From: a virus
Lineage: Duplodnaviria > Heunggongvirae > Uroviricota > Caudoviricetes
Direction: 5' to 3' (one strand)
DNA: 64,000 nt
IMG/VR virus record: IMGVR_UViG_2687453424_000001
A program made the position numbers and the translations under genes. Each line of letters opens with the position of its first letter. Within the stretch, counting starts at the first letter, position 1. Below, piece by piece: positions 1 to 53,377 of the stretch. A model generated the notes under the pieces. The model was not told the origin of the DNA, ran no database searches, and saw only the letters and a program-made list of their open reading frames with translations.

Positions 1-1
1 T

Positions 2-262
2 GCTCTCGGTTCTGGTCAGAAGGCGGATGCGTTACAGAGTTTTAACTCTCTGGCAGACAGCAGTCTGGCAAAAGCTAAATCGGATGCACAGGCGGCGTTT
101 ACGAAACAGCAGGGGCGAGCCTCTCTTGTTGGTGCTGGTCTGGGTGCGGCAGGTGCGTATGCGATGCATAAGGCTGGCGGTAGCGGAGGAAGTGGCGGTG
201 CTAAAACACCTGGCACCGGCGCTAATGCCATTCAGCATCAGGCTCAGAACTGGAGACTGTGA
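2..262 (+). CDS. 3'-terminal fragment of a gene that starts upstream of the window; Gly/Ala-rich hydrophobic C-terminal region; function unknown
   Basis: Frame 2 is open from the first base to TGA at 260-262 (ends ...SLVGAGLGAAGAYAMHKAGGSGGSGGAKTPGTGANAIQHQAQNWRL). Absent from the ORF track only because no start codon lies inside the window. Codon usage matches downstream genes; its stop sits between the GGAG RBS and the start of the next gene. Confidence 0.45.
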   Translation, partial: ALGSGQKADALQSFNSLADSSLAKAKSDAQAAFTKQQGRASLVGAGLGAAGAYAMHKAGGSGGSGGAKTPGTGANAIQHQAQNWRL

Positions 263-264
263 TT

Positions 265-711
265 ATGGAGTACGGTAAATACGAAACACTTGCAAGATAC
301 GGTTATACCGGAGCAGCCCGCCCTCAGGGGGACTGGCAGACATCCGCAGCGCTGACCCGCCAGCAATACGACGACTGGCGCACCAGATATTTACCCCGTG
401 TAGCAAGGCTGGCTGACCTTGGGGAGAACAACAGTCTGATGAATGCACAGCTTGCACGGGTGGGAGGCCTTGCCACTTCCAGTCTCCGTACAGCGCAGAT
501 GGCGCAGGATAACCAGATGGCGAGATACGGGGTAAACCGCCCGGATAATCCCGACAGTAATACGCTGGGGTTACGTAATGCCCTGGCAATTGCTGGCGCG
601 AAAAATGGTATCCGTGAAGCCGAACAGGATCGCCAGATGAATATTCTGACGGGGGCTTCTGCACCGGCAAGACAGAAACTGAGTGTTGGCGGCCAACTGG
701 TGGCAGCGTAA
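265..711 (+). CDS. hypothetical protein, 148 aa (phage/mobile-element-like operon)
   Basis: ATG at 265 preceded by GGAG at 252-255 (9-nt spacer); stop TAA 709-711. The ORF track starts it at GTG 259, but the ATG with proper RBS spacing is preferred. Tightly packed with neighbours on the same strand. Confidence 0.6.
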   Translation: MEYGKYETLARYGYTGAARPQGDWQTSAALTRQQYDDWRTRYLPRVARLADLGENNSLMNAQLARVGGLATSSLRTAQMAQDNQMARYGVNRPDNPDSNTLGLRNALAIAGAKNGIREAEQDRQMNILTGASAPARQKLSVGGQLVAA

Positions 712-720
712 GGGGGCAAT

Positions 721-972
721 ATGGGATACGGTTTACTGGATATTGCAAATCAGTCGCGGCGTGAGGCATTACAGGGAATAAGTGACGCAGACAGACGACG
801 TGAAGAAATTGAGGCTGCGAACAAACAGATGGCGGCGCAACAGAAAGCGCAGAACAAGCAGAATATCGGTACGGGCATTGGTACGGGGGCGGCTATTGGC
901 GCATCCGTTGGTGGTCCTGTTGGTGCTGTTGCTGGAGCAGTAATTGGCGGCATTGCTGGTTCTTTGTTTTAA
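721..972 (+). CDS. small protein (83 aa) with charged N-terminal half and C-terminal glycine-zipper hydrophobic segment; putative membrane protein
   Basis: ATG 721 preceded by AGGGGG; C-terminus GTGIGTGAAIGASVGGPVGAVAGAVIGGIAGSLF is a run of GxxxG/AxxxG repeats typical of glycine-zipper transmembrane helices; stop TAA 970-972 overlaps the RBS of the next gene. Confidence 0.6.
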   Translation: MGYGLLDIANQSRREALQGISDADRRREEIEAANKQMAAQQKAQNKQNIGTGIGTGAAIGASVGGPVGAVAGAVIGGIAGSLF

Positions 973-982
973 GGAGTGGTGA

Positions 983-2248
983 ATGAGCGGATTTGCACAG
1001 GGGTTACTTGCCGGATTCAGCACCGTTGACCAGGCAATGACCCGTCGTAAGGAGCTTGGTCTGCGTGAAGCACAGCTTGCCCGGCAACAGAAAAATAACG
1101 AGCGCGATTTTGAGTTTGCGCAGTCTCAGTTTGAACATAATAAAAACGTTGATCAGCGGAACTTTGATTACAGAGCCAAAGTTGACGACCGTAATTATGC
1201 ACTGAAGGAAAGGGAGTTTAACGCTAACCAGAATTACCGGAATGCGTCACTGGGTATGGAGCAGCAGCGACTCCAGTTGCAGAAATACAACCAGCGACGG
1301 CTTGAGTATAACGATATGATTGCCCATAGCCAGCCACTAATGGAAGCGCTTGGAAAAGCAATTGAGGCTGGCGATCAGGAGGCTGCAACGCGTCTGTTCG
1401 GGCAGCTGCCAAAGGGACATCCATTAATTCTTATGTCAAACGAAGGCTATGCAGCGAAAGCGGGTCAGGCCGTGATCAACCTGCAAAAAATCTTTGGTGA
1501 TAAGCCGGACATGGCGATCGATTCGCTGAATACCCCGGAAAATCTCGATGTGCTTTCCGGCGTGTTTGCCCCGGAACTACAACAGCGTATTGGCATGCCT
1601 GATTCAACCGGGGACAAAACGATAAAAGAGGCCAGGATTGGCAGTATCGTACCAGCGCAGCAGGAAGGGTACGTACTTATTGGCCTTGATCTCACATACA
1701 GCGATGGCTCCACCGCGCATAAACCTGTAACAGAATACGGCAGTGCGCACCCTGATGATCAAACCGTGCTGGCGATACCCGTTGATAAGGCTATCGCTCA
1801 GGTCAGGGATCGCAGCAAATTTGCAGAGATATCGAAAAATTATGGTTATTTTATGCCGAAGCAGCAGGGACTTTCTCTGAAAGAGCTTCAGAAGGGGGCC
1901 AGCAACGTAGCGGCAGACGCGATCAAGAATGGCGGTAATGCTCAGGCTGCGGTGGATGAATATTATGCTGCGACTGGTTCACAACCGCATCAACAGAAAA
2001 TTCAGCAACAAAAACTTCAGCAACAGGTTATCAACTGGGCGGGAGATGATCCTGATAAGCTGTCATTTGCCAGAAATGTAGCGGCCCGTCAGCCTGAAAT
2101 GCTGGAGCCTCAGAATCAGAAATTGCTGGAGAACGGGTATGCGAATTTTCTCCGTATTCAAAAGGCCAGGGGGGAACAGGCCAGAGATGAAAGTGCTTCA
2201 TCTGCATCTCAGTTTATCCGTGGACTGAAACAGAATTACGCCCAGTAA
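983..2248 (+). CDS. hypothetical Q/N/R/E-rich protein (421 aa), predicted largely alpha-helical/coiled-coil
   Basis: ATG 983 with AAGGAG 6 nt upstream; composition rich in Q, N, R, E, K with QQKIQQQKLQQQ-type stretches; stop TAA 2246-2248, followed by an intrinsic terminator. Confidence 0.65.
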   Translation: MSGFAQGLLAGFSTVDQAMTRRKELGLREAQLARQQKNNERDFEFAQSQFEHNKNVDQRNFDYRAKVDDRNYALKEREFNANQNYRNASLGMEQQRLQLQKYNQRRLEYNDMIAHSQPLMEALGKAIEAGDQEAATRLFGQLPKGHPLILMSNEGYAAKAGQAVINLQKIFGDKPDMAIDSLNTPENLDVLSGVFAPELQQRIGMPDSTGDKTIKEARIGSIVPAQQEGYVLIGLDLTYSDGSTAHKPVTEYGSAHPDDQTVLAIPVDKAIAQVRDRSKFAEISKNYGYFMPKQQGLSLKELQKGASNVAADAIKNGGNAQAAVDEYYAATGSQPHQQKIQQQKLQQQVINWAGDDPDKLSFARNVAARQPEMLEPQNQKLLENGYANFLRIQKARGEQARDESASSASQFIRGLKQNYAQ

Positions 2249-2280
2249 TTCACGATATTCCATTAACACCATTTCCTGAT

Positions 2281-2306
2281 GCCCGGCCATTGTGCCGGGT
2301 TTTTTT
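2281..2306 (+). terminator. Rho-independent (intrinsic) terminator between the 421-aa gene and the giant gene
   Basis: Stem CCCGGC (2282-2287) / GCCGGG (2294-2299) with 6-nt loop CATTGT, immediately followed by a run of seven T (2300-2306). Confidence 0.6.
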
Positions 2307-2317
2307 ATGGAGTCTGT

Positions 2318-5300
2318 ATGGCCTATTCAGAGGAACAGCGTCCTGAGGCGCAACTCGGTAACCAGAATCGTAACAGCCTGAACATTCAGCAACCCGGCGA
2401 AACTGACAGCTATGAAGCATTTTTCTCTGATCCGAATCGCTGGAAGGATAACAGTACGTCGTTCAGCCTGGGCGATGTATTGCCAACAATGGGTAAAGGT
2501 TTCGCCCAGTCCGTCCGGGGAACAGGGGAAATGGCCCGTGGACTCGGTGATGCGATGATTCAGAGCCCGGTAAAAACAGGGGTGCGTATTTTAAATGAGT
2601 TCAGCCGTATGGGGCTGCCGGGTGTCGCAACTGTGCAGGATATTTTTGCCGGTGGCAGCAGGGGGGCTGATGAGGTCATCGATACCCTGCCTGATGGCAA
2701 AAACGCGGTTACTGATACTGTCGGTAAAGGTCTGAAGGCAACCGGTAAGGCTGTCAGTGATGGTGCTGAAGCCACTGATGAATGGCTGACCGGTAAGATG
2801 TCGCCGGGTGCTGTTCGTGCGCTGAACACGCCAATGAGTGAAGGCTATGATGATCCCGCAGTCTGGCTGACGAAGGGGATGAATTTTGTCGGTGCCGTTG
2901 CGACAGATGTGTTTGCTGGCGGTGTGGCTAAAAAGGTGGGTGATGTCACACTGCGAAAAATGCTGACCGCCGGGCTGGAGAAAAAATACATCGCGGCAGG
3001 GATGCAGCCGGAAAGAGCCTCGGCACTGGCAGCAGAAGCTGTCGATAAAAAAATGCCGGATTTATTCCAGGCGGGCCTGATCACCCATTCAACAGCCAGT
3101 GCACAGGGGCAGAGTGCAATGGCGGCAGCAGATGCTGTTCTTAATGCGGATTACTCTGAGCTGGCGCAGTCACCGAAATTTCAGCAAATGTTTTTGTCCA
3201 TTGACGCCGACCCGCAGCACGCACAGCTTACTGATCGCCAGAAAATGGACCTGGCAAAAGAGCGTGTGGCTGATGAGGTGCGTGCGCAACTGGCAACCGA
3301 TCCTCAGTTGCTGGCTGTGAATGCCATGGCGGCAAAACTGGGCGATGCTCAGTTGCTTAATCTGGCGATGCGGGGCACAGCGAAGACCGTTAAAAGCGGC
3401 ATTGTCAGAAATGCCACTGCACAGGGGGCGATTAATGCGGCGCAGGGCGGCTATTCACGCTATCAGGAAAACACGGCATTGCGTGAGACCGCCGGAATGG
3501 ATGTATCGCCATGGGAGGGCGTGGCTGACGCAACGATCGAAGGTGCTGCCCTTGGTGCTGCGATGGGGGCTCCATTCGGTGCAGTTGCCGGATATCGTGG
3601 CAGACGTCAGGCCGCAGAAGAAACCGCCATGCGTGATGCTGAAACCGTGCAGCAGGACGACGCAGCCCCGCAACCAGAATCTGTTGATCCGGTGGCGCAG
3701 CATCGTGAATCCATGCAGGGGATGAATCGCGAGCAGCTTCTGGAGCAGTATGCTGATGCGGATATGGCGACAGAGGGTGACGCATCCGCAACTCATCGCC
3801 GGGAAGCCGCCAGCCAGCTGTTGAATGAACTGGACGAACAGGCGAAGCGACAGGCTGTGATGAATGAGCTGAAGGCGAAGCCGCGCCCTGAACTGCTTGA
3901 GGAATACCGAAAACTCAGCCTGAAGGAAGGGCGTACTGATACTGAAGAGCAGCAGTTTCAGGCAATACGTGAAGTCATTCGCCCACAACAGGAAGTGACG
4001 CCTGAAGCACAGTCACAGCCTGAAAATGCGGAGGATGGTAACGGGAGCATTTACCCGACGGTGCGGTTCCGGGACCCGAATGAAGTCCGCATTGAAATTA
4101 ACGGGAATGGTGCGTCCAGACCAGCGGAACGCATTGAAAAGGTGCGCCCGGACAACCGTTATTTCACGGATGAGAAAAGCGCCATGGGGAGTGATGTTTT
4201 CCGTAATGCCGCCGCCACCGGCCTGAAACCGTCCGTAGTGAAGAAAGGCGAGAATCAGTATGCCGTTGAAATGGATAATCCTGCGTTCTCTGAAGATGTG
4301 GCAACGGAAACCATTAACACCCTGGCTGACAGAGAGCGTATTGCTGATGCTGACCCGATGGAGCAGCCCGCGTTCATGCGTGACCCGCGATTCCGTGGTT
4401 TCACGGGGGATGATACGGAGGTACAGGCCCGCCTTGCCCGTGGCAACGCGCCGACGGCGGAGGAGCTTGTACGTTCACAGATGGCTGAAGGTGATGCCGG
4501 TCCGACAGCACAGGAGTTAACTGAGCGTCCGCGTCTGCCCGCCCCCGGCGATATTCATCCCGGACAGGGATATCCGTTACCGGGAGAGGTGGCGCGTACG
4601 CCGGATGAGAATCAGGCCGGACGTGGTGGTCGTTTTACCACAACCGGTGAGGTTAAGGGCCAGAGTTTCCAGAAAGGACGTGCTCCGGCACCGGAAAACG
4701 CCGCTGGTCGCCAGGGGGAAATACTGGAGGGCGAAACAGTTCGTCGTGGTCTGCCGTCACCGGATGCGCAGAACGCGACAGCACCGGTACGTGAAGGGCT
4801 ACCGGCTCCTGACATTGCGCGTAATGTTCGTATGCCTCAGCCTGAATCACTTCCCCGCACTGTACGGGACTCACTGCCTGAGCTTGCACAGCAGGCAGAA
4901 GTACGCCGACAGGCCGGAGGAAATCGTGACATCCCGCAGCCTGAGACAATCGCACCTGAATCTGAAACAACTGTCTCTACTGACAGGGAAGCTACCGTGC
5001 GCGGAGGTGAAGTCAGGGGCAAAAAAATTGAAGACTTTGGCGAGGAAATTAAAGGGGCAGCCAAACACCGTTATGCACAGCTTGCTGAAACACTGGGTAA
5101 AACGCTGGAAGACAGGGATTATGCCACGCAGCCGCTGAGCAAACTGTTCCCGAAACCGGACTACGCAAAACTGGCGAACGAAGGTGCCGATGCTGATACC
5201 CTGGCAATGATAGCGCTGTATCGTAGCGATATTCCGGCGAAGACGAAACACAATACGGCAGGCTGGGGGGAGAGCATAAAAAAAGTACGACACAGTGTAT

Positions 5301-8300
5301 CGGAAATGCTGAACGGAACGGTCAGCGCGAAACGCCTCGCAGAATGGATGGAAGGCAGAATGCCCTCCCGTTACGCGGACACCTGGCAACTGTTACGCAC
5401 TCTGCCACCCTCACAGATGGACAGAGCTTCTGCTTATCGGGTGGTATCGGGTGTGTATCAGGCGGCAGGAGGGAAGCGTTACGATCCGCCACAGAAACTT
5501 TATTCACTGCGCAATAAGGACAATAAGGGGAGTAACCTCTTTTTCTCGGAAAGCAGGGATGAATTACTGGCAAAGGCGAAAGTCTGGTTTGCAGAGCAGG
5601 AGGAAAAATCACAGGCGAAAGGTGATGAAAAAACAGCACCGTCACCGGATGACAAAATCCGCTTTGACGTTTACCGGAATACCCGCAGTGGCGATATTTT
5701 TATCGCTTACGGTAAAAACAAAATGCGGGTGAGAGGTGGCTTTAAGTCAGCCAGTGATGCGCGTAAGTACATTGATTCACATCGTGATGAGCTTGTTCGT
5801 CATGTGAAGGAGATGCGGGAGATTTCGCGTGAGGAGCAGCGCAACGCCACCAACCGCGACCGTACCGGACCAGAACGCCGCAAGGGGAATGTTTCACCGG
5901 AGCAGTTCAGTGATGCGTTTGGTTTCCGTGGTGTGCAGTTTGGTAACTACGTGGAAGGTCCGCGTCGTCAGGCTGATTTGAACCGGGCTTATGACTCGCT
6001 GCATGACCTTGCGGAAGTACTGAATGTACCGACAAAAGCGCTTTCCCTGAACGGTCGTCTTGGCCTGGCATTTGGTGCCCGTGGTAAGGGTAAGGCGGCG
6101 GCACACTATGAGTCAGGTGAGGTGGCAATCAACCTGACAAAAGGTAACGGACCGGGTGCGCTGGCGCACGAATGGTTCCATTCTCTGGATAATTATTTTG
6201 GTCGTTATGACGTTTCCAATGACGGGAAAATTACGTCAGGTGGCGACTTTATGACGGAAGCACAGCGTGTCAGGCGCATATTTAAAGACGGCAGGTATGT
6301 TGATGCTGAATATCCGGTACGTCAGGAGGTTTACGACGCTTTTAAAGGTGTGATTCAGGCCATTAAAAACAGTGACATGCCGCGTCGTTCAGCGCTTCTC
6401 GATGAGGTGCGCTCAAAACCGTACTGGTCAACGGATGTTGAAATGGCGGCACGTGCCTTTGAGCGTTATGTTCAGGATAAGGCGCGTATGGCTGGCGTGG
6501 AGAATGATTATCTGGTCAATATCCGTAAGGCACCTGAGCACAACACAGATAACACCTACGCTTATCCGACGAATGCGGAACTGGATGGCGGTATTCGTGA
6601 GGCATTCGATCACCTGTTCCGCACCCTGAAAACCCGTGAGACGGACAAGGGCGTTGCGTTTTATTCCCGTAAGGGCGTTACCCGCACACCTGAAGGTAAT
6701 CTCATTTCGGATGTTAACCGTAGTGCGGAAGCCAAAGGCAGCCCGGTCCCGCAGGTTGAAGCGGTTGCCCGTGGCGTGATGAGCGGCATTAAGGACAGTG
6801 ACCTGAAGGTCCGTGTGGTGAAGTCACAGAAAGAGGCTGAAGCGCTGGCGGGTGAATTGTTCGATGGTTACGGCAGGGTGCACGCATTCTATCGTCCGGA
6901 TAAACGAGAAATTGTCCTGGTGGCGGATAACATCCCTGACGGGCGGACCGTTCGCGAGAAGCTGCGTCACGAGATCATTCACCATGCCATGGAGCATGTT
7001 GTCACACCAGCGGAATATCAGACGATTATCAAAACCGTGCTGAAAACCCGCGACAGTGATAACGTCACCATCCGTGAAGCCTGGCGTAAGGTTGATGCTT
7101 CCTATGGTAAGGAATCACCGGAAGTACAGGCGGGTGAATTTCTGGCACATATGGCGGAGAAACAGCCGAATAAATTCGTGGCGGCATGGGAGCGTGTTGT
7201 TGCCCTGGTCAAAGGGGTACTGCGTCGTACGGGGTTACTGAAGCCGACGGAACTGAACGATATCAGACTTGTTCGCGAAACTATTCGCACGTTAGGCCTG
7301 CGTGTGCGGGAAGGTTACACGCCGCGTGAGGATGGCGCGGGCGCATCGTCTCAGTACTCCCGTAGTGGTAAACCTGATCCGTTCAAAGTGCCGGAAGGTG
7401 AGGGCGAGCGTTATCGTGATGACCTTGCCAGAATGATGAAGTCGTTACGTTCTGGTGCAATGACTGCAAACATCGGGCGTACGCCGCCGGTATTGCGCCA
7501 CCTTGGCGCACCAGATTTGCCGCTGGTTATCTCCCGCGACACTGTGCGGAAGGCAACCAATGGAGTGAAACATGTGGTGCCAATGGATGTTATCGAGAGA
7601 CTTCCTGAGCTGATGCACGATCCGGATGCAATTTACCGTTCCGCGACAGAAAGAAATGCGGTTGTGATGCTGCTTGATGCCGTGGATAAAAATGGTGATC
7701 CGGTGGTGTCGGCAGTGCACATGAAGGCAACAGATAAACGAATAGAAATTAACAAGGTGGCTTCTGTATATGGAACAAAAGGGGGGATGAACAAAGCTAA
7801 TAGCCTGGATAAAGCAGGTTTGACGCTTTACCGGAAGGAAAAATTAAGCCGCGATAACCCTCAGTACAGTGGGCTTCAATTGCCCAAAGAGGAGCGTTCT
7901 TATCGCGGCTCTGTAGATAAAATACTCTATCCTGAAGATATTCGCAATGGGCCGTATTACTCCCGTACCAGCAGTCTGACACCGGAAGAGACAATTGCAT
8001 CGCGTTTTGTGCGTCAGATGCAGGATAAATTCCAGGTGCTGAAAGCTGTTCAGGAGAACATCCGTAAAACTGGCGGAAAAATAGACGACAGTAACAACGC
8101 TTATATGGCGGAAGAACTCTTCCACGGGAAGGCGGAAAACGACCTGAACGTGATGAAGGAGCGCTACGTTCAGCCACTGGCTAAATTACTGGCGGACTAC
8201 AAAATTGCGCAGGCCGATCTGGATGAGTACCTCTACGCCCGTCACGCGCCGGAACGTAACGCGCATATCGCGAAAATCAACCCGAAAATGCCGGACGGCG

Positions 8301-10702
8301 GTTCGGGGATGACCAACGCGGAAGCGGCGGAAATCATGCAGCGTGTACGTAACAGTGGCAAACAGGCACAGTATGACCGTCTGGCAGGGATTATTGACGA
8401 TATGCTGGCCCGTCGCCGTGAGCTTATCCGTCAGGCCGGACTTGAAGAGAACGGTGTGGTGGATGCCTGGCAGAACGCCTACCGTTACTACGTTCCCCTG
8501 AAAGGTCAGGATGTTGACGGTGTGGTGTCACTGCCCCGTACAGGTAAGGGCTTCACCATCGGCGGACGTGAAAGCAGGCAGGCCATGGGGCGTGCATCCC
8601 GGGCACAGTCTCCGTCCACTCAGGCGATACAGGACCTGAGCGAATCGCTGATCCGCCATCGCAAAAACGAAGTGGGTAACGCCTTCCTGAAACTGGTGCA
8701 GGATAATCCCGACAAGGATTACTGGCAGGTATTCACCGATGACAGACCGGATACCATGCGGACGATTGCAGAGCGCAAGGACCAGGAAACTGGTGAAACC
8801 ATTCGCGAAGCTGTCGAACGCCCTGTACCGATGGCAATGATGGCAGACCGGTACTTCACCACCAAAAAGAACGGCAAAACGTACTACATCAAACTCCATG
8901 ATCCGCGCCTGATGCGTGCGATGAAGAATATGGGACCGGAAACCAGTAACGCCGTAATCCGCACGCTGGGGAAAGTTAACCGCTTCCTGGCAACGGTGAA
9001 CACGTCGTATAACCCGGAATTCCTGGTCAGTAACTTCATCCGTGACGTGCAGACGGCGGTGATGAACCTGAAGGCGGAGCAGGGAAGGAGCGACGGTAAA
9101 CTGAAAGGGCTGGATAACTTATCCGCCCTGGCTGTGGTGAAAGACAGCCGTTCTGCCATGTCAGCCGTATACGCCAGTCTGCGTGGTAAAACCCTCACGG
9201 GAAAAGGTGCACAGTGGCAGAAGGTGTGGAAAGAGTTTGTTGAGGACGGAGGGAAAACCGGCTGGTTTAACATGGGTGACCTTGAAGGCCAGCAGAAGGA
9301 AATGGATCGCCTTGTCTCACTGGCGAAGGGGGGATGGAAAGGCCAGAGTATCGGTGCATGGAATTCGTTCCTTAACCTTGTCGAGGATGCCAACGGTGCG
9401 GTTGAAAACGCTCTGCGTCTTTCTGCCTATAAGCACGCCCGTGATACCGGTTTGTCACGCCAGCAGGCGGCGTCTCTTGCCAAAAACATGACGGTGAACT
9501 TTAACCGTCGTGGTGAGCAGGGGGCGCTGATGAATTCGCTGTACATGTTCGCCAACGCCAGCATTCAGGGAACGGCAAATCTGGTGAGAACGCTCGGACA
9601 TCTTAATGGTGAGGGACCTTTACTGGAGCGCCTTCGCTGGAAGAATCTGAATGTTCCGCAGAAAATCGCGCTTGCCGCTGTGGGAGCAGGTTATCTGCTT
9701 GGCTCGCTTAACCGCAGCGTGGCGGGTGAGGATGATGACGGGGTTAACTGGTATGACAAGGTGCCGTCTCATGTGAAAGAGCGTAACCTCGTCATTATGA
9801 AATCGGTGTTCGGGGGCAAGGCCGGAGAGTACTGGAGTATTCCTCTGCCTTACGGGTACAACGTTTTCTTCCTGCTCGGGCATACTGCTGAAGGTGTGGC
9901 GGCGGGTGACCTGACGGCGTCCCGTGCTGCCGGTAATGTTGTTGGTGGTGTGCTTGGTGCATTCAGCCCGATTGGCAGTGAGACGTCGGAAACACTGTCC
10001 GGGGCATTGCTGAAAAATGCAGCGCCGACCATTCTGCGTCCGTTTGCGAACCTTGCCATGAATGAAAACTTCATGGGGGCGCAGATTTACCAGGAGAACA
10101 TGCCGTTTGGTACACCAAAACCTGACAGCCAGCTGGGAAGACGTTCAACGCCAGAAGCGTACAAGGCGTTTGCATCCTGGCTGAATGCGTTCTCTGGTGG
10201 CAGCCAGTACCGTCCCGGCGCGGTGGATATCACACCGGAATCGCTGAAATACTGGGTGGACTATATCTCCGGAGGGACAGGGCGCTTCATTTCCAAAACC
10301 ACGGATGCGGCGGTGAAATCGCTGAATGGTATTGATATACCGGAGCAGCAGGTGCCCTTCCTGGGGAAAATTTCAGGTGAGGTGATGCCGTATGCTGACC
10401 AGCAGAAGATGTACGACCGGATGACAGAGGTTGCGCAGTATCACGCAGAGCTGAAGAGTCTGACCGGTGCAGAAAGAACGGCGTTCATTGACGAGAACAA
10501 CGGAAAATTGTCGATGAACGGGCTTATGCAGGATACCCGGAAGAGACTGAAGGATTTGCGTAAACAGCGTGATGCCATTTACGCCGACAGTACTCTCAGT
10601 CTGGCGCAACAGTCGGCGATGGTGAAATCGGTTGAGCGGGATATGAAAATTGCCGTGGATCGGTTTAACCGCGAGTACAACAAAAAAGTGGGAGTGGAGT
10701 AA
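2318..10702 (+). CDS. giant multidomain protein (2,794 aa) with two HExxH zincin-type motifs; candidate virion-packaged/injected or polyvalent protein of a phage or conjugative element; family not identified
   Basis: Uninterrupted 8.4 kb reading frame, impossible by chance. ATG 2318 preceded by GGAG 2309-2312 (5-nt spacer) just after the terminator; the ORF-track start at 2279 would place the terminator hairpin inside the CDS. HEWFH at nt 6167-6181 (aa ~1284) and HEIIHHAMEH at nt 6968-6997 (aa ~1551); acidic/Pro-rich low-complexity region ~3650-4950; hydrophobic segments ~9660-9980; stop TAA 10700-10702. Confidence 0.8.
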   Translation: MAYSEEQRPEAQLGNQNRNSLNIQQPGETDSYEAFFSDPNRWKDNSTSFSLGDVLPTMGKGFAQSVRGTGEMARGLGDAMIQSPVKTGVRILNEFSRMGLPGVATVQDIFAGGSRGADEVIDTLPDGKNAVTDTVGKGLKATGKAVSDGAEATDEWLTGKMSPGAVRALNTPMSEGYDDPAVWLTKGMNFVGAVATDVFAGGVAKKVGDVTLRKMLTAGLEKKYIAAGMQPERASALAAEAVDKKMPDLFQAGLITHSTASAQGQSAMAAADAVLNADYSELAQSPKFQQMFLSIDADPQHAQLTDRQKMDLAKERVADEVRAQLATDPQLLAVNAMAAKLGDAQLLNLAMRGTAKTVKSGIVRNATAQGAINAAQGGYSRYQENTALRETAGMDVSPWEGVADATIEGAALGAAMGAPFGAVAGYRGRRQAAEETAMRDAETVQQDDAAPQPESVDPVAQHRESMQGMNREQLLEQYADADMATEGDASATHRREAASQLLNELDEQAKRQAVMNELKAKPRPELLEEYRKLSLKEGRTDTEEQQFQAIREVIRPQQEVTPEAQSQPENAEDGNGSIYPTVRFRDPNEVRIEINGNGASRPAERIEKVRPDNRYFTDEKSAMGSDVFRNAAATGLKPSVVKKGENQYAVEMDNPAFSEDVATETINTLADRERIADADPMEQPAFMRDPRFRGFTGDDTEVQARLARGNAPTAEELVRSQMAEGDAGPTAQELTERPRLPAPGDIHPGQGYPLPGEVARTPDENQAGRGGRFTTTGEVKGQSFQKGRAPAPENAAGRQGEILEGETVRRGLPSPDAQNATAPVREGLPAPDIARNVRMPQPESLPRTVRDSLPELAQQAEVRRQAGGNRDIPQPETIAPESETTVSTDREATVRGGEVRGKKIEDFGEEIKGAAKHRYAQLAETLGKTLEDRDYATQPLSKLFPKPDYAKLANEGADADTLAMIALYRSDIPAKTKHNTAGWGESIKKVRHSVSEMLNGTVSAKRLAEWMEGRMPSRYADTWQLLRTLPPSQMDRASAYRVVSGVYQAAGGKRYDPPQKLYSLRNKDNKGSNLFFSESRDELLAKAKVWFAEQEEKSQAKGDEKTAPSPDDKIRFDVYRNTRSGDIFIAYGKNKMRVRGGFKSASDARKYIDSHRDELVRHVKEMREISREEQRNATNRDRTGPERRKGNVSPEQFSDAFGFRGVQFGNYVEGPRRQADLNRAYDSLHDLAEVLNVPTKALSLNGRLGLAFGARGKGKAAAHYESGEVAINLTKGNGPGALAHEWFHSLDNYFGRYDVSNDGKITSGGDFMTEAQRVRRIFKDGRYVDAEYPVRQEVYDAFKGVIQAIKNSDMPRRSALLDEVRSKPYWSTDVEMAARAFERYVQDKARMAGVENDYLVNIRKAPEHNTDNTYAYPTNAELDGGIREAFDHLFRTLKTRETDKGVAFYSRKGVTRTPEGNLISDVNRSAEAKGSPVPQVEAVARGVMSGIKDSDLKVRVVKSQKEAEALAGELFDGYGRVHAFYRPDKREIVLVADNIPDGRTVREKLRHEIIHHAMEHVVTPAEYQTIIKTVLKTRDSDNVTIREAWRKVDASYGKESPEVQAGEFLAHMAEKQPNKFVAAWERVVALVKGVLRRTGLLKPTELNDIRLVRETIRTLGLRVREGYTPREDGAGASSQYSRSGKPDPFKVPEGEGERYRDDLARMMKSLRSGAMTANIGRTPPVLRHLGAPDLPLVISRDTVRKATNGVKHVVPMDVIERLPELMHDPDAIYRSATERNAVVMLLDAVDKNGDPVVSAVHMKATDKRIEINKVASVYGTKGGMNKANSLDKAGLTLYRKEKLSRDNPQYSGLQLPKEERSYRGSVDKILYPEDIRNGPYYSRTSSLTPEETIASRFVRQMQDKFQVLKAVQENIRKTGGKIDDSNNAYMAEELFHGKAENDLNVMKERYVQPLAKLLADYKIAQADLDEYLYARHAPERNAHIAKINPKMPDGGSGMTNAEAAEIMQRVRNSGKQAQYDRLAGIIDDMLARRRELIRQAGLEENGVVDAWQNAYRYYVPLKGQDVDGVVSLPRTGKGFTIGGRESRQAMGRASRAQSPSTQAIQDLSESLIRHRKNEVGNAFLKLVQDNPDKDYWQVFTDDRPDTMRTIAERKDQETGETIREAVERPVPMAMMADRYFTTKKNGKTYYIKLHDPRLMRAMKNMGPETSNAVIRTLGKVNRFLATVNTSYNPEFLVSNFIRDVQTAVMNLKAEQGRSDGKLKGLDNLSALAVVKDSRSAMSAVYASLRGKTLTGKGAQWQKVWKEFVEDGGKTGWFNMGDLEGQQKEMDRLVSLAKGGWKGQSIGAWNSFLNLVEDANGAVENALRLSAYKHARDTGLSRQQAASLAKNMTVNFNRRGEQGALMNSLYMFANASIQGTANLVRTLGHLNGEGPLLERLRWKNLNVPQKIALAAVGAGYLLGSLNRSVAGEDDDGVNWYDKVPSHVKERNLVIMKSVFGGKAGEYWSIPLPYGYNVFFLLGHTAEGVAAGDLTASRAAGNVVGGVLGAFSPIGSETSETLSGALLKNAAPTILRPFANLAMNENFMGAQIYQENMPFGTPKPDSQLGRRSTPEAYKAFASWLNAFSGGSQYRPGAVDITPESLKYWVDYISGGTGRFISKTTDAAVKSLNGIDIPEQQVPFLGKISGEVMPYADQQKMYDRMTEVAQYHAELKSLTGAERTAFIDENNGKLSMNGLMQDTRKRLKDLRKQRDAIYADSTLSLAQQSAMVKSVERDMKIAVDRFNREYNKKVGVE

Positions 10703-11139: not shown

Positions 11140-12431
11140 AAAGCAACCATGCCACCCAAGGCTTTGTGCAACCTGGCCTTCAACACTGCCAGGGATGGAG
11201 CATTCACAACCTCCCTGGGCAACCCATTCCAGTGCCTCACCACCCTCTCAGTAAAGAATTTCTTACTTAGATCTAATCTAAATTTCTCTGTTTAAGATTT
11301 AACCCATTGCCCCTTGTCCTATCACTACAGTCTCTAATGAAGAGTCGGTCTCCAGCATCCTTATAGCCCCCCTTCAGATACTGGAAGGCTGCTGTGAGGT
11401 CTCCACGCAGCCTTCTCTTCTCCAGGCTGAGCAGCCCCAACTTTCTCAGCCTGTCTTCATACGGGAGGTGCTCCAGTTCCCTGATCATCCTCGTGGCCCT
11501 CCTCTGGACCTGTTCCAACAGTTCCATGTCCTTTTTATGTTGAGGACACCAGAACTGCACACAATACCCAAGTGAGGTCTCAGGAGAGCAGAGCAGAGGG
11601 GCAGGATCACCTCCTTCGACCTGCTGGTCACGCTCCTTTTGATGCAGCCCAGGATACGGTTGCTTTCTGGGCTGCGAGCACACACGGTAGCCGGCTCATG
11701 TTCATTTTTCATCGACCAACACCCCCAAGTCTTTCTCTGCAGGGCTGCTCTGGATCTCTGCTCTGCCCAATCTGTAGCGGTGCCTGGGAATGCTCCAACT
11801 CAGGTGTAGGACCTTGCACTTGGCATGGTTAAACTTCATAAGGTTGGCATCAGCCCACCTCACAAGCATGTCAAGGTCCCTCTGGATGGCATCCCTTCCC
11901 TCCAGCATATGAACCAAACCACACAGCTTGGTGTCATCGGCAAACTTGCTGAGGGCGCACTCAATCCCACTGTCCATGTCACCAACAAAGATGTTGAACA
12001 AGACCGGTCCCAACACCCATCCCTGAGGGACACCACTCATTACTGGTATCTAGCCGGACACTAAGACATTGACCACAACTCTTTGCATGCGGCCATCCAG
12101 CCAGATCTTTATCCACCGAGTGGTCCACCCATCAAATTGATGTCTCTCCAATTTAGAGACAAGGATGTCGTATGGGACAGTGTCGAACGCTTTGCACAAA
12201 TCCAGGTAGATGACCTCAACTGCTCTACCCCTGTCCATCAGTTCCGTAGCCCCATCATAGAAGGACACCAAACTGGTCAGGTAGGATTTCCCCTTTGTGA
12301 AGCCATGCTGGCTGTCACCAACCACCTCCTTGTTTTTCATGTGCCTTAGCATGCCTTGCAGGAGAATCTGCTCCAAGAGTTTGCCAGGCACAGAGGTGAG
12401 ACTGACTGCTCCGTAATTCCCTGGGTCATCC
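11140..12431 (-). mobile_element. CR1 (chicken repeat 1) LINE fragment, ORF2 reverse-transcriptase and C-terminal region, 3' part
   Basis: Minus-strand translations give hallmark CR1 ORF2 peptides: [95 protein letters not shown], and further upstream [16 protein letters not shown]...[16 protein letters not shown]. Confidence 0.8.
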
Positions 12432-12962
12432 ATTTTTCCCTTTTTTCGTGGTTTAAGCCCCGGCTGTAAATTAGAACCACGCAGTCTACTTCCCCCCCAC
12501 CCCCCCGACGGGATGGGGAGGAGAATCGAAAGAATGTAACTCCCATGGGTTGAGATAAAAACAGTCCAGTAACTAAGGTATAACACAAATCACTACTGCT
12601 GCCACCAATAATAATAATGATAAGAGAAATAACAAGGGAAGAGAATACGATACCGCCCGCCGGAAAAGAGAGCCCGACAGAAAGAGGACGTGCCCTTCCG
12701 GGTAGCTCCCAGTTACATCCCCTGGCATGACCTGCTGTGGTATGGAATACCTCTTTGGCTAGCCTGGGTCAGGTGTCCTGTCCTCGCTTCCTCCCAGCCC
12801 CCCCTCCTCCCTGGCAGAGCATGAGACTCACAAAGTCCTTGGTCAGTCTAAACATCGGTGTTATCAGCTTTGTTCCCAGGCCAAAAGTCAAAAACACAGT
12901 GCTGCAACAGCTACTAAGAAGGAGGAAAAAATGACTGCTACTGCTGAACCCAGGACAGTATA
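12432..12962 (+). repeat. ~0.55 kb interspersed repeat, copy 1, inserted inside the CR1 element; unclassified (solo-LTR-like or non-autonomous element)
   Basis: Begins TGGTTTAAGCCCCGGCTGTAAATTAGAACCACGCAGTCTACTTCC and ends ...AAAATGACTGCTACTGCTGAACCCAGGACA; same unit recurs at 13925-14488, 28205-28750 and inverted at 48690-48962. Confidence 0.6.
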
Positions 12963-13044
12963 TAATGATAAAGGAAATAACAAGGAAGAGAATATAACCG
13001 CTCACCATCCGGTACCTCGCCCCCACCCCGCATTGATCTAGCCC

Positions 13045-13300
13045 TGTTGGCAGATCCTCTGGTGTTTTCCAACCAGTTGGCCTTTGGTAAGTGTGTATCC
13101 CAATGTCTGAAAGTTCCCCCACCCATTGCTCTCAGTGTAGTTTTTAACAGCCCGTTGTACCATCCGATTTTCCCAGAGGCTGGTGCATGGTAGGGGATGT
13201 GATATACCCACTCAATGCCATGCTCTTTGGCCCAAGTGTCTATAAGGTTATTCTGGAAATGAGTCCCATTGTCTGATTCAATTCTTTCTGGGGTGCCATG
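13045..13300 (-). mobile_element. retroviral/LTR-retrotransposon integrase catalytic-core fragment (pseudogene), part of the insertion into CR1
   Basis: Minus-strand translation HGTPERIESDNGTHFQNNLIDTWAKEHGIEWVYHIPYHAPASGKIGWYNGLLKTTL matches the integrase core (SDNG...HIPYHP...SGKIER.N) pattern. Confidence 0.55.
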
Positions 13301-13377
13301 TCACCACAAAATCTGGTTCTCAAGGCCCAGGATAGTGTTCCGGGCAGTGGCGTGGGGCACAGCGTATCAGGAAACCG

Positions 13378-13925
13378 TTCTTGAAAATGGGGGTTATATT
13401 TCCCTTTTTCCAGTCATCGGGAACTTCACCTGACTGCCATGATTTTTCAAATATGATGGCCAGTGGCTTAGCAACTTCATTTGCCAGCTCCTTCAGGACC
13501 CGCGGATTGATTTCATCTGGTCCCATGGACTTGTGCACATTCAGGTTGTTCGGATGGTCTCAATCCAGACCCTCTTCTGCAGTGGGCCCAAGGTTTTAAT
13601 TCTCACAGTTCCTGCATCTGCCTTCCAAGACTTGGGTTATCAGAGCATTTGCACTGAAGACTGAGGCAAAGAAGTCATTAAGAACCTCAGCCTTCTCCAA
13701 ATCCAGGGTAGCCAGTTCTCCTGATAGCCTCTAGAGAGGGCCCAAGTTGTCCGTAGTCTGTCTTTTATTTGCTATGTAGCTATAGAATCCCTTCCTGTTA
13801 TCTTTCACATCCCTAGCCATGTTTAATTCTAACAGGGCCTTAGCTTTCCTAACCTGGTCCATAGCTTCCCGGAAAACATCCCTGTATTCTTCCCAGGCTC
13901 CATGTCCTTGCTTCCCCCTTTTTGT
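13378..13925 (-). mobile_element. CR1 LINE fragment, upstream ORF2 portion of the same element as 11140-12431
   Basis: Minus-strand peptide [49 protein letters not shown] directly precedes, in CR1 ORF2 order, the [22 protein letters not shown] peptide at ~12430; 13600-13925 is near-identical in reverse complement to 21180-21500 of the plus-strand CR1. Confidence 0.75.
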
Positions 13926-48962: not shown

Positions 48963-49950
48963 GGGCTAAACCATGACACTCCCCAGACCCACAAATACCC
49001 CCCAAGTGACCCCCATCGAGCCACATCTGCCTGCCAAGTGACCCCCCAGAGACCCCCAGACACACAACTGCCCCCCATGTGACCCCAAATTGACTCCGCA
49101 GACCAACCACTGCGACCCAAGTGACCCTGAAGTGACCCCCCAGACCCACAACTATCTCCAAAGTGACCCCCAAGGGACCACCCATACCTACAACTGCCCC
49201 CAAATGACCACCAAGCAACCACCTAGACCCCCAACTGTCCCCAAATTGACCCCCACGTGACCCCCATCGAGCCACAGCTGTCCCCCAAGTGACCCCAAAT
49301 TGACTCCCCAGACCCACAACTGCCTCACAAGTGACCCCAAGTGACCACCCAGTCCCACAACTGTCCCCCAAGTGACCCCAAATTGACTCCCCAGACCCAC
49401 AACTGCCCCACAAGTTACCCCAAGTAAGCACCCAGACCCACAAGTGCCCTGCATGTGACCCTCCAGACCCACAAATGCCCCCCCAAGTGACTCCAAATTG
49501 ACTCCATAGACCAAAAACTGCCTCTCAAGTGACCCCCCAGTGACTTCCAGAACCACAACTGCCCCCAAGTGTCCCTAAAGATATCCCCATAGAGCCAAAA
49601 ACTGCCCCCCAAGTGACCCCAAATTGACTCCCCAGACCCACATCTCCCGCCAAGTGACCACCCAGGCAAACAACTGCCCCCCCAAGTGACTCCCCAGACT
49701 CAAAACTGCCTCCCAAGTGACACCCTAGACCCACAACTGCCTCCTAAGTGACCCCTGAGTAAACCCGCAGATCCACAACTGTCATTCAAGTGGCCCCCAG
49801 GTGTCCACCCAGACGCACAACAAACCCAAGTGACCCCCAAGTGGCACGTCAGACCTACACCTCCACCTCCAGTGACCTCCCAGTCACCCCCAAACCCACT
49901 CCTGCCCCTCAAATGACTCCCCAGACCCACAACTGCCCCCCAGGTTGGGG
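48962..49950. repeat. ~1 kb minisatellite, strongly C-rich on the plus strand; ~20-22 bp sub-repeats often organised as ~41-42 bp higher-order units
   Basis: Recurring CCCAGACCCACAACTGCCCCCCAAGTGACCCCAAATTGACT-type units from ~48962 to ~49950, with substitutions; complementary strand carries regularly spaced G3-G6 runs. Confidence 0.8.
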
Positions 49951-51649
49951 GTCAGAGAATCCTGGCATCCCGGAGGCACGGATGGGTTGGGGGGAGCAAA
50001 CTTTCCCGGTTGGTTCCATTTCAGCCTGAGCAGCGCCAGCAGGAACATCCAAAAAGCTTTTTGCTCCTCTTGTCCTGAGCCCTGCTCTGCGGGGCTGTCA
50101 GAGCCATGGCAGTGCAGCGCTGAGCTTCCTCTGCTGCCCCCTGCCGGCAGGCTGTGCACAAGGGCAGTGCCCATCAGCTCTCGTGGCTCTGCAGCAGCAG
50201 CAGCGGTGCTTTGGCTCTGCGCTCCGGTGAGCACAGGGTTTACACAGCTTGTCTGAACCGGAGCCCGTTGTGAACAGGAAGAGACAATTCGGGAGGAAAA
50301 AGGGGGTTAAACAGTGCCCGCATTGCCTTCTTCTCTGTGAGGCCATGTTCTGCTCCTGCAATCCAGTCAGGCCGTGGATTTGCTGATGACCTTCACCAAG
50401 GCATGGGCTGCCTGATTTTTGTCTGGTGCTCATCCTTTTCCTCTTGCCTTTTAAAATAACAGCAGCAGGGTTTGGTTTTTTCCCAATCTCTTCTGCTTTC
50501 AAGGCAGTTGATTCTTTTAGCGCACCTGAAGGGTTTGGCTCAGAATAAGCAGCCATCCTTGCACACCTCCTGATAGCGTATCAACAAGACTCAGTGAATC
50601 CTGTCAAGCACAGTGAAGTCTGTCACAGCTGCTGTGCTGCCATGTGGGGATTGTGGTTTGGTTGGTAGGAGATGGATTTGAAAGCAGGAAAAGGACAGAA
50701 AGCATTCATGTTGTTTACTGCTGAGCACGTTGCTGCTGTGACTCTCAAACCATCGGTTTCAAATGCTCCCTTGCACAACTGTTGTTGAACTTTCCCTGTG
50801 CTAAGAAAGCAAGTTGTTGGGACTTCTTCCTTTTTAAAAGAAATGAAGAATGGTGCAGAACTTCCACGTGAACTGTTTGACCTGAATATGGATCTGGTTC
50901 CAGTGCTGTTATCCAGGAGATAAGAAACAGCTTCTTTTGTTCGACTGTAATTTTTACAAGAGGTGAACTGGTTCAGAATTGTGTTTCCTTCATAATTTTT
51001 TGGCCAGCAAAAAGTTAGATTTCTGCTTTCCTTTATGGTTGTTTTTGAATGGTATCCCCTAAGGCATAGCAGTGCTCAGTAGCTGTGCAGTAGTGTGCTC
51101 GCCTTCCTATACAGCCAAATCCCTAGGAAAAATCTTCCTCCTCCTGTTGTTTCACTCCAGAATAGGAAGGGTGAGCACCAGGTTCTGTCATCTGGATGAA
51201 TGTGTCTGTGGGCTTACGCTTTTCAGACAGCTGGGTGACAGTAGTGGGTGACAGTGGGACATCAAGTGCCCCACAGTTATCTGACTGCTCTGCTCCTCCA
51301 GGACCATGGGTGCAGATGGGCTGGAGACAGCTCCTCCATCCCAGCCCATCTCTGCCCCCCCATTAGATGAAGCCTGCAAGCGAGGGCTGCAGGTACGTGC
51401 TGAGGCAAAGGGGCAGCACCGTGGGTGAGACCGCAGGGAGCTGAGCCTGACCCTGCTGGATCCCCATCCCCTCCAGGAGGTCTGGCAGCTGGCTGCAGAG
51501 TGGGAGCAAGGGAAGACCCATTGGCAGGAGGGCAGGAGAAAGTGAAGGCAGAATGGGCGGTGTGGGAAGGCTGGGCTGCAGGGGAGGACCAGCATCCTCC
51601 CCAGGGATGGGGATAGGGATTGACCCTCGCCTGCTGCAGGCTCCTTCAC

Positions 51650-51720
51650 AGTATCACAGTATCACAGTATGTTAGAGATTGGAAGGGACCTCAAAAGATC
51701 ATCTAGTCCAATCCCCCTGC
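51650..51720 (-). mobile_element. CR1-family 3' terminus (variant with TCACAGTA microsatellite)
   Basis: CACAGTATCACAGTATCACAGTATGTTAGAGATTGGAAGGGACCTCAAAAGATCATCTAGTCCAATCCCCCTGCCATGAGG: reverse complement of the CR1 3' hairpin/microsatellite end. Confidence 0.55.
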
Positions 51721-52589
51721 CATGAGGTCCTCTGGGATACGGCACCATGAGGCTTGCTGAGATCATCTCCTCCATGCCGAGCTCTTGGGATCGGAGGCCT
51801 TTGGGTTTCCCACCCTCCAACCCAGCCCAGGAGAAAGGAGAGGTGGAGAAAGGCTGAAACCCCTTTGCCAGCAGAGGAGACGGCAGCAGCAGCCCCGCTG
51901 GAGAGAGCCCAGCCTGAGTAAGTGTGGACACTGCCTGTTGGGCAGCCCCATCCCTGCATGCTGGGGCTGCAGAGGAGCAGCCTGGGATGTGCTGGGTCAG
52001 CTCCACAGCCAAAGGATGATGCTTCCCTGTGTTGCAGCTGCCTTTCCTCACGAGCTGCCCAGGTCCTCAGGAGGCTGGAGCTGTTCCAAGCACCGAGGAA
52101 CATCTTCAAGAATGTCACTGAGAACAGCAGGAGGAGGATGGAGCAGCAGAGGCAGCTCCTCCACTAACGGTATCCATAAGGGGATGGGCTTCCCATGGCA
52201 AAGGGGCTGGAGGCTCCTCAGCTGCCAAGGTCCACCCCGAAATCCATAATAAAGAGCTCTGGGGCTGCTTGCAGTGATGGATCCATCAAAGCAGAGTAAA
52301 CGCAGGAAGATGCTCAAGCTCTCCTGCTCACATTCCCACCTCAGGGCACCTGAGCTCCCAAAGCTGCCTTGGTGTGATGTCACCCATCACTTATGATGTC
52401 ACAAAGCTCCGGCACTTATGTAACAAAGCCAGGCATAAAAGCGGAGCCGTTCCTGTGTCTGGGTCATGATGGAAGAGCTGCCTGAGTGGTTGGGTCGCTC
52501 GTGAGGAAGCTGCGTTGGTGGTACCTGCGCCTCAGCAGATGCAGAGAGAAAGCTGCAGAAAGAAAACTTCTGACCAAGTATGTGTGGAA

Positions 52590-53070
52590 AATAATAGAAT
52601 CATAGAATAGTTAGGGTTGGAAAGGACCTTAAGATCATCTAGTTCCACCCCCCCTGCTATGGGCAGGGACACTTCACGCTAAACCATGTCACCCAAGGCT
52701 CTGTCCAGCCTGGCCTTGAACACCGCCAAGGATGGAGCATTCACAACTTTCCTCGGCAACCCGTTCCAGTGCCTCACCACCCTCACAGTAAAGAATTTCT
52801 TCCTTATATCCAATTTACACTTCCCCTGTTTAAGTTTTAACCAGTTACCCGTGGTCCTATCACTACAGTCCCTAATGAATAGTCCATCGACCAAGACCCC
52901 CAAGTCCTTCTCCACAGGGCTGCTCTGAATCTCCTGTCTGCCCAACCTGTAGCTGTGCCTGGGATTTCTTCGAATCAGGTGTAGGACCTTGCACGTGGCA
53001 TGGTTAAACCTCATAAGGTTGGCATCAGCCCACCTCACAAGCGTGTCGAAGTCCCTAACCAAATTTCATT
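52590..53070 (-). mobile_element. CR1 LINE fragment (ORF2 C-terminal region to 3' end), internally deleted
   Basis: Minus-strand peptide [22 protein letters not shown]...[67 protein letters not shown] is the canonical CR1 ORF2 C-terminus; 3' end motif ATAGAATCATAGAATAGTTAGGGTTGGAAAGGACCTTAAGATCATCTAGTTCCA at ~52590-52645. Confidence 0.8.
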
Positions 53071-53199
53071 TCATATTAAGAAAATATTCCTCATGTTGAG
53101 GATACAGAGACAGTGGCAAACTCTTGCCCAGAGAAGCTTTGGCTGCTCCATTGTGGGCAGTGTTCAAGGGCAGGTTGGAAAGGGAAGGTTGGACAGAGC

Positions 53200-53377
53200 A
53201 GCTTGGAGCAAGCTGCTGTAGTGGAAGATGCCCCTGCCAGTGGCACGGGTTGGAGCTGGATGAGCTTTAAGGTCCCTTCCACCTCAACCCAGTCTGGCAT
53301 TCCATGATTCTCTGCTGTGCCAATGTCGGTCACTCTCTACTTGTCGTAGGTGGCCGTGATGCCCTGTTCCGTTGCCC
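53200..53377 (+). repeat. second copy of the CR1-like 3'-end-plus-flank segment seen at 31615-31816; runs into gap
   Basis: GCAGCTTGGAGCAAGCTGCTGTAGTGGAAGATGCCCCTGCCAGTGGCACGGGTTGGAGCTGGATGAGCTTTAAGGTCCCTTCCACCTCAACCCAGTCTGGCATTCCATGATTCTCTGCTGTGCCAATGTCGGTCACTCT... Confidence 0.5.

Follow-up and report, generated by a model that had tools for sequence, protein, structure and literature searches.

The gene at positions 2318..10702 on the plus strand of IMG/VR virus record IMGVR_UViG_2687453424_000001 (hereafter the window, the whole 64,000-nucleotide stretch that was analysed) is the phi24B allele of the known gene for the giant, probably internal virion protein of the short-tailed Shiga toxin (Stx) phages, genus Traversvirus. 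It encodes 2,794 amino acids (aa) plus a stop codon, and is the same gene as vb_24B_48 of phage phi24B (called gp47 in a 2026 preprint) and as open reading frame (ORF) 80, or ECs1242, of Sp5. Our analysis indicates that the protein is probably packed in the phage head and ejected, with a chassis that would serve passage through the cell envelope and a cargo that would act early in the host. As judged from alignments, the conserved chassis consists of an N-terminal module, the second of two zincin domains and a 915-residue helical C-terminal module that includes LPD38. The cargo is swappable and comprises LPD5, a CLCA_X-type zincin whose C-terminal half is LPD1, and a ribonuclease (RNase)-like domain of the PBECR kind.

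Over this gene the window is 100% identical to positions 49187-57571 of the phi24B record HM208303, and DNA identity is 97.3% to VT2-Sakai/Sp5 ORF80 and to many other Stx phages. The whole gene is present in 186 Stx phage records and is carried by 426 of 5,426 complete E. coli genomes; RefSeq labels its product "LPD38 domain-containing protein" or, in some phage records, "LPD5 domain-containing protein". It closes the late (morphogenesis) region of phi24B and Sp5, downstream of the tail genes and lom, at the right prophage end. About 15% of the genome of a short-tailed Stx phage, the vehicle by which Shiga toxin genes pass between E. coli strains, is taken up by this single gene. The original prediction, made from the letters of the window, had suggested a possibly novel protein without a match; this is ruled out, since the gene has already been named, knocked out and found in the virion. 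The class that it proposed, the giant virion-packaged or polyvalent proteins of phages, is borne out by matches to LPD5, LPD1, MuF_C and LPD38 and by published virion proteomics. Inspection of the neighbouring genes, a check that it had recommended, finds virion and morphogenesis genes in phi24B, in Sp5 and in a Vibrio phage.

Mondal et al. (2016) showed that an Sp5 mutant deleted for ORF80 (2,793 aa) forms no plaques and no lysogens, and that the defect can be complemented (PMC5155283). The mutant packages DNA at the wild-type level into normal-looking heads, and deletion of the upstream ORF79 (421 aa) has the same phenotype, particles that are non-infective with their DNA packaged (PMC5155283). 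All these mutants were constructed and assayed in one K-12 background, MG1655 (PMC5155283); donor and recipient being the same strain, the essentiality of ORF80 involves no restriction barrier. In phage PTXU04, an LPD38 giant protein is likewise required for efficient infection. Bubenchikov et al. (2026) detected gp47 in purified phi24B virions with 10,962 spectra, second to the capsid protein, and estimated 11-35 copies per particle (bioRxiv 10.64898/2026.04.10.717836). Their cryo-electron microscopy (cryo-EM) maps contain no gp47 density; the authors proposed an encapsidated ejection protein, and placed gp47 function among the unanswered questions of the study (bioRxiv 10.64898/2026.04.10.717836). 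Because the protein is abundant in virions but lies outside all resolved density, we infer that it is internal. Peptides in the table of the preprint span, in our residue numbering, aa 19-41 through 2778-2789. The entire chain is therefore in the particle, and the gene is translated essentially end to end, as expected for real coding sequence.

The gene itself is clearly delimited. In the ORF call on the window, the plus-strand frame 2279..10702 is open throughout as a single ORF, with 2,794 codons from ATG 2318 to the stop at 10702. The probability of a stop-free run of 2,807 random codons is about 3e-59, so that a chance origin is excluded. A GGAG ribosome-binding site (2308..2311, plus strand) is located 6 nucleotides before ATG 2318. 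The alternative ATG at 2279 adds 13 codons, is located within a terminator-like hairpin and was called spurious. Three same-strand genes (265-711, 721-972 and 983-2248) are closely spaced upstream, and these features together agree with the earlier view of a real 8.4 kb coding gene, with a ribosome-binding site, at the end of a same-strand operon.

The protein was compared with the Pfam and NCBIfam domain libraries, and the hits to LPD5, LPD1, MuF_C and LPD38 all exceeded the Pfam cut-offs. Library matches and alignments together identify LPD5, CLCA_X/LPD1, a second zincin, MuF_C and LPD38, in line with the multidomain architecture predicted at the outset; all parts are given below on the plus strand. 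The N-terminal module (aa 1 to ~450, 2318..3667) is Gly/Ala-rich, has a glycine-zipper-like end at aa 407-425, and matched no family in Pfam and, in a profile search, no entry in the PDB. A low-complexity linker (aa ~450-904, 3668..5029), recognised by its composition, is acidic and then Pro-rich, and has no family match in Pfam. The composition described in the original prediction holds for most of this half, with glycine plus alanine at 26-32% per 100 residues over aa ~100-500 and an acidic and Pro-rich stretch at ~400-900, but not for the first 100 residues, where glycine plus alanine reach only 17%. The first cargo element, the LPD5 unit (aa ~905-1200, 5030..5917), contains Pfam LPD5 at 1051-1200 (E 6.5e-45), preceded by an N-terminal extension that is conserved in the homologue alignment. 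LPD5 has been considered possibly enzymatic (Iyer et al. 2017, PMC5512222).

Exactly two HExxH motifs are found, at aa 1284 and 1551, as first noticed, and both domains that carry them gave zincin fold matches. The first zincin, a cargo element, is a probable CLCA_X-type metallopeptidase domain (aa 1182-1440, 5861..6637) with HEWFHSLD at 1284-1291. The NCBIfam profile CLCA_X (NF041907) matches aa 1182-1437 with E 2e-43 over profile positions 3-245 of 250, its 148.6 bits being below the curated 260-bit cut-off. The HEWFHSLD motif is nearly invariant across 36 homologues and agrees with the published CLCA_X consensus HExxHxxxD (PMC3650047). Because the CLCA_X match spans aa 1182-1437, Pfam LPD1 (aa 1361-1440) corresponds to the C-terminal half of this zincin domain. 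The second zincin-like domain (aa ~1470-1670, 6725..7327), assigned to the chassis, has HEIIH at 1551-1555 and a glutamate at 1607; its ~200 residues belong to no Pfam family. Across 52 diverse sequences, conservation of the motif residues H, E and H and of Glu 1607 reaches at least 90%.

The last cargo element (aa 1690-1850, 7385..7867), matched by Pfam MuF_C at 1750-1839, is a PBECR domain, that is, an RNase-like domain of the RelE/BECR fold. Iyer et al. (2017) equated MuF_C with PBECR and described the active form of this BECR fold as having a histidine and a C-terminal serine or threonine (PMC5512222); a set of 30 diverse homologues shows conservation of H1752, H1801 and S1816. The "MuF-C metallopeptidase domain" of the preprint is a merger of two things, the HExxH motifs being located elsewhere and MuF_C being RNase-like. 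The Phage_Mu_F core of the MuF and SPP1 gp7 minor head proteins was not reported up to E 0.1, and only the MuF_C part (PF18819) was found.

The C-terminal module (aa 1880-2794, 7955..10699) is mostly helical and contains many invariant polar residues. Pfam LPD38 (aa 2477-2682, 9746..10363, E 8.4e-49) covers only ~200 of its ~900 residues. A structure model of this module consists mostly of helices with one small beta domain, and matched only generic helical hairpins. Foldseek comparison of the central model with the PDB gave no match at E 0.001, the only coherent ones being faint matches to BECR toxins, and neither a phmmer search of PDB sequences with the whole protein nor profile searches with alignments A1, A2 and A4 returned anything usable for any part. 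The C-terminal hydrophobic segments mentioned in the original prediction do exist, but they are only moderate (best 19-residue Kyte-Doolittle mean 1.22) and include no classical transmembrane helix, so that membrane anchoring through them finds no support in hydropathy. Among the library matches there is also no family of tape-measure proteins, virion RNA polymerases or toxins.

The distinction between chassis and cargo emerges from the distribution of these parts. The C-terminal 915 residues are conserved as a block, with 47 invariant columns in 30 sequences and identities down to 32%. This module always forms the extreme C-terminus of homologues, exists also as stand-alone proteins of ~900 aa, and follows other N-terminal domains such as ART-PolyVal, methyltransferases, PBECR1 and LPD3. 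It is carried by Stx phages, ~100 Vibrio phages (~60 kb), Burkholderia phages Bcep22 and JC1, Ralstonia phages, Bacillus megaterium phages Pony and Pavlov, and one Bacteroides phage. When the first 480 residues were used as query in an exhaustive HMMER search, 67 proteins of 1,500-5,500 residues were found to begin with the N-terminal module, and 28 of them end in the C-terminal module. Among 17 others, LPD39 is present in 13, together with cargo such as InPase, LPD5+LPD1, methyltransferases, ddrB-ParB or a Sbno-type helicase. With other cargo, the chassis turns up in dozens of phage proteins of 2,000-5,500 residues. The C-terminal module of the LPD38 type and the giant proteins of the LPD39 type gave a tentative profile match in hhalign (probability 59%, E 9e-5).

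Cargo regions vary between otherwise very similar proteins. Two hot spots of allele replacement were found in E. coli prophages, at 7295-7990 (aa ~1660-1890) and at 4865-5770 (aa ~850-1150). In several partial E. coli proteins, the PBECR stretch (aa 1660-1890) is only 29-43% identical while its flanks are 94-100% identical, and a second allele of the LPD5 region, with 48-70% identity, likewise lies between flanks of 94-100% identity. No other part of the protein varies as much among E. coli phages as MuF_C/PBECR; comparing phi24B with 933W/Sp5, this cassette has 87% identity and the C-terminal module 98.8%. The same division is found at a much greater distance. The giant protein of Vibrio phage 1.205.O (3,130 residues) is 29% identical to the window protein in the N-terminal module, 31% in the second zincin and 41% over 930 residues of the C-terminal module; it lacks LPD5, CLCA_X/LPD1 and MuF_C, and carries different cargo.

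The giant protein contains no cysteine in 2,794 residues, for which P is about 4e-14 at a typical frequency of 1.1%. Cysteine is likewise absent from each of the four upstream cassette proteins described below and from all five cassette proteins of Vibrio phage 1.205.O. Of the 67 giant proteins that share the N-terminal module, 61 are free of cysteine, and the whole set has only 8 in 198,835 residues. By comparison, the phi24B nozzle has 8 cysteines in 567 residues. Stand-alone LPD5+CLCA_X proteins (~480 residues) have 3-4 cysteines in nine of twelve cases checked and none in the other three. Since most of these stand-alone proteins do contain cysteine, its avoidance is tied to the giant virion context and not to the domain families. 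It would reflect what is demanded of a protein that has to exit the capsid in an unfolded state and then pass through the oxidising periplasm.

The giant gene is the last of a five-gene cassette, all on the plus strand. The first gene, encoding the gp51 homologue (vb_24B_44), is cut by the start of the window, so that only its 3' end is present (1..262, mapped from HM208303); gp51 has ~22 copies per virion and no cryo-EM location (Bubenchikov et al. 2026). Then come the gp50 homologue (vb_24B_45, 148 aa; 265..711; phrog_596, of unknown function), with ~36 copies of gp50 per virion and no assigned location (Bubenchikov et al. 2026), and the gp49 homologue (vb_24B_46, 83 aa; 721..972), which has a C-terminal glycine zipper (Pfam Gly-zipper_YMGG, E 9e-6) and the RefSeq label 'bacteriocin'. 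The weak mass-spectrometry signal of gp49 in virions was dismissed by the authors as a contaminant (Bubenchikov et al. 2026); gp49 may nevertheless belong to the internal-protein cassette, as Vibrio phage 1.205.O encodes a 77-aa counterpart at the corresponding place, before its gp48-like gene. The fourth gene encodes the essential virion protein gp48 (vb_24B_47, Sp5 ORF79, 421 aa; 983..2248; phrog_601), which has ~30 copies per virion and no assigned location (Bubenchikov et al. 2026). Sp5 ORF76, whose deletion strongly reduces infectivity without abolishing it, is probably the gp51 homologue, to judge from gene numbering.

In Vibrio phage 1.205.O (MG592575; L003:4657-16706), a five-gene cassette in the same order ends the morphogenesis module. 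Its products have 201, 117, 77, 442 and 3,130 aa, compared with 218, 148, 83, 421 and 2,794 aa in phi24B. A weak gp48 homologue is encoded upstream of the giant gene in ~100 Vibrio phages.

These data suggest the following scheme. The giant protein would be packed inside the T=9 head together with gp51, gp50, gp49 and gp48. Once the tail needle is released, it would exit through the portal-tail channel in a largely unfolded state, and this would account for the scarcity of cysteine. The chassis and gp48 would then help to build or extend a route through the cell envelope. Early in infection the cargo would become active in the host: the zincins may cut the polyprotein itself or targets in the envelope and the host, while RNA may be cut by the PBECR domain, as in other polyvalent proteins. 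Metallopeptidase domains have indeed been proposed to process such polyproteins (Iyer et al. 2017, PMC5512222).

Several observations weigh against this scheme. Delivery of the giant protein into the host with the DNA is most likely, but ejection is what we infer. No homology to the T7 or P22 ejection proteins was found in sequence and fold searches, no transmembrane helix is predicted, and a lysozyme or transglycosylase domain is absent from the Pfam matches. Heads of the Sp5 ORF80 deletion mutant are not labelled by tail-fibre antibody (PMC5155283); this is atypical of ejection-protein mutants and suggests that the protein also has a part at the portal vertex, in completing the head or attaching the tail. 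In counts per protein and gel slice, most gp47 spectra fall in the uppermost slices, as would be expected of a chain that is largely intact in the virion, and processing by the zincins is thus putative. Finally, the copy numbers of gp47 are label-free mass-spectrometry estimates from a preprint.

A protein that is packaged, invisible in cryo-EM, essential and needed for tail-fibre labelling of heads could also be a non-delivered head-core or head-completion protein. It would plug or organise the portal vertex for tail joining and DNA retention, with enzyme-like domains that are accessory or vestigial, and the chassis is indeed conserved like structural proteins, with 98.8% identity among Stx phages. 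We consider this explanation unlikely. The mutant retains its DNA, the catalytic-type residues of both zincins and of PBECR are conserved across distant homologues, and cargo cassettes have been exchanged between otherwise identical alleles, a pattern of the conflict type. Moreover, a protein that never left the capsid would have little evident reason to avoid cysteine throughout its family.

A direct part in the tail, as a structural or assembly protein and perhaps as an ATP-driven assembly factor, was suggested by Mondal et al. (2016) on the basis of a COG1483 AAA+ match. The gene is located after the tail genes, and Sp5 particles deleted for ORF80 bind no tail-fibre antibody although their heads are filled with DNA. 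However, the protein contains no [AG]xxxxGK[ST] Walker A motif and matches no ATPase family in Pfam or NCBIfam, the phi24B tail has been fully modelled (portal, two adaptors, nozzle, fibres and needle) without the abundant gp47, and the domain content is typical of polyvalent effector proteins. A tail role is thus quite improbable. Two published annotations are corrected here: the protein shows nothing of an AAA+ ATPase, and the metallopeptidase is a part other than MuF_C.

Least probable of all is a role solely in counter-defence, like that of P1 DarB, in which the protein would be injected to shield the incoming DNA or to shut down host immunity and would take no part in an entry channel: relatives in Bcep22, JC1 and Ralstonia phages that share the C-terminal module are annotated 'DarB-like antirestriction', phrog_10089 matches the giant protein, and the polyvalent-protein framework (Iyer et al. 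2017, PMC5512222) and the variable cargo alleles would fit, but the protein is essential even with the same K-12 strain as donor and recipient, which weakens this idea most, no methyltransferase or helicase domain was found in Pfam or NCBIfam, and conservation is highest in the N- and C-terminal modules, which are not enzymatic.

Returning to the ejected protein with chassis and cargo, we tentatively propose, as a possibility that we hold with less than even confidence, that it represents an undescribed class of entry proteins. Members would be defined by the N-terminal module together with a C-terminal module of the LPD38 or LPD39 type; a cysteine-free chassis with gp48-like partners would build the route through the envelope, and the same chain would carry exchangeable effector enzymes. 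If true, 'ejection protein' and 'polyvalent effector' would be merged in one molecule in podovirus entry. Our analysis adds no new gene; the map of chassis and cargo, the conserved cassette and the avoidance of cysteine are modest but testable additions, and the map points out catalytic-type residues for mutation in the Sp5 complementation system.

A few other features of the window deserve mention. Directly before the ribosome-binding site of the giant gene, a hairpin rich in guanine and cytosine (2281-2300; 7 pairs, 6 of them G-C) is followed by T7 (2281..2306, plus strand), and is the best terminator-like site on the plus strand in the first 10.9 kb. As a predicted terminator, it might keep expression of the giant gene below that of gp48, unless antitermination acts on the late transcript. 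Within the giant gene, the GenBank record of phi24B annotates three minus-strand ORFs, vb_24B_50c, 51c and 52c (5322-5645, 7797-8177 and 8528-8899). These are antisense to a translated and conserved gene and are probably not genes; the examined parts of the virion proteome table list a few other overlapping small ORFs with only 1-2 spectra (Bubenchikov et al. 2026).

Neither the Stx phages nor any of the 5,426 E. coli genomes resemble the window beyond ~10830, 22 nucleotides past the end of the phi24B record. Beyond this point, the minus strand encodes a frameshifted RVT_1 reverse transcriptase (11273-13538), whose residues presumably resemble those of a bird or reptile CR1 long interspersed nuclear element, and the remainder of the window includes eight runs of N of 1.7-5.4 kb. 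The window is therefore most simply explained as a junction of phi24B-identical prophage DNA and eukaryote-like DNA, by contamination or in a chimeric scaffold.

Compared with known systems, the window gene differs in nothing material from phi24B gp47 and Sp5 ORF80, being the same gene at the same prophage position. With the podovirus ejection proteins (T7 gp14/gp15/gp16 and P22 gp7/gp20/gp16), the giant protein shares a cassette position after the tail genes, an internal location (inferred here), a requirement for infectivity but not for packaging, and similar copy numbers, those of the three P22 proteins being 12, 12 and 30 (PMC8402733). In contrast to these proteins, it is 2 to 10 times larger, has effector-type enzyme domains and no transglycosylase, and its mutant heads lack fibre labelling.

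DarB of P1 and the DarB-like proteins of Bcep22, JC1 and Ralstonia phages are likewise giant and virion-packaged. The Bcep22, JC1 and Ralstonia proteins are 26-28% identical in the C-terminal module and are encoded at the same gene position. In Burkholderia phage JC1, the giant homologue gp69 is associated with the virion, and the portal, capsid and head-closure genes of this phage are shared with 933W. The N6-adenine methyltransferase and DExH helicase of P1 DarB, however, are absent here from the Pfam and NCBIfam matches, with no Walker A motif, and anti-restriction leaves the essentiality unexplained. The first zincin shares with the CLCA_X zincins (Lenart et al. 2013) the HExxHxxxD motif and a near-full-length profile match below the curated cut-off. 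Unlike CLCA_X and CLCA_N proteins, it is embedded in a giant protein, and its cleavage activity is putative. CLCA proteins cleave themselves (PMC10669480), and CLCA_N domains are metalloproteases; by analogy, self-cleavage fits the idea of polyprotein processing.

The closest framework is that of the phage-type polyvalent proteins, with which the giant protein shares a single giant chain encoded among virion genes, LPD5, LPD1, MuF_C/PBECR, LPD38 and metallopeptidase domains (PMC5512222). Polyvalent proteins carry 2-15 distinct domains, and LPD38 is restricted to the phage-type ones (Iyer, Burroughs, Anand, de Souza and Aravind 2017, PMC5512222). The giant protein has several domains of the LPD and effector kinds, a late location among virion genes, and a metallopeptidase domain with a putative role in processing. 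Whereas that framework concerns early effectors, the protein described here is essential for infection without a restriction barrier, and its best-conserved parts are the undescribed N-terminal module and the ~900-residue C-terminal module.

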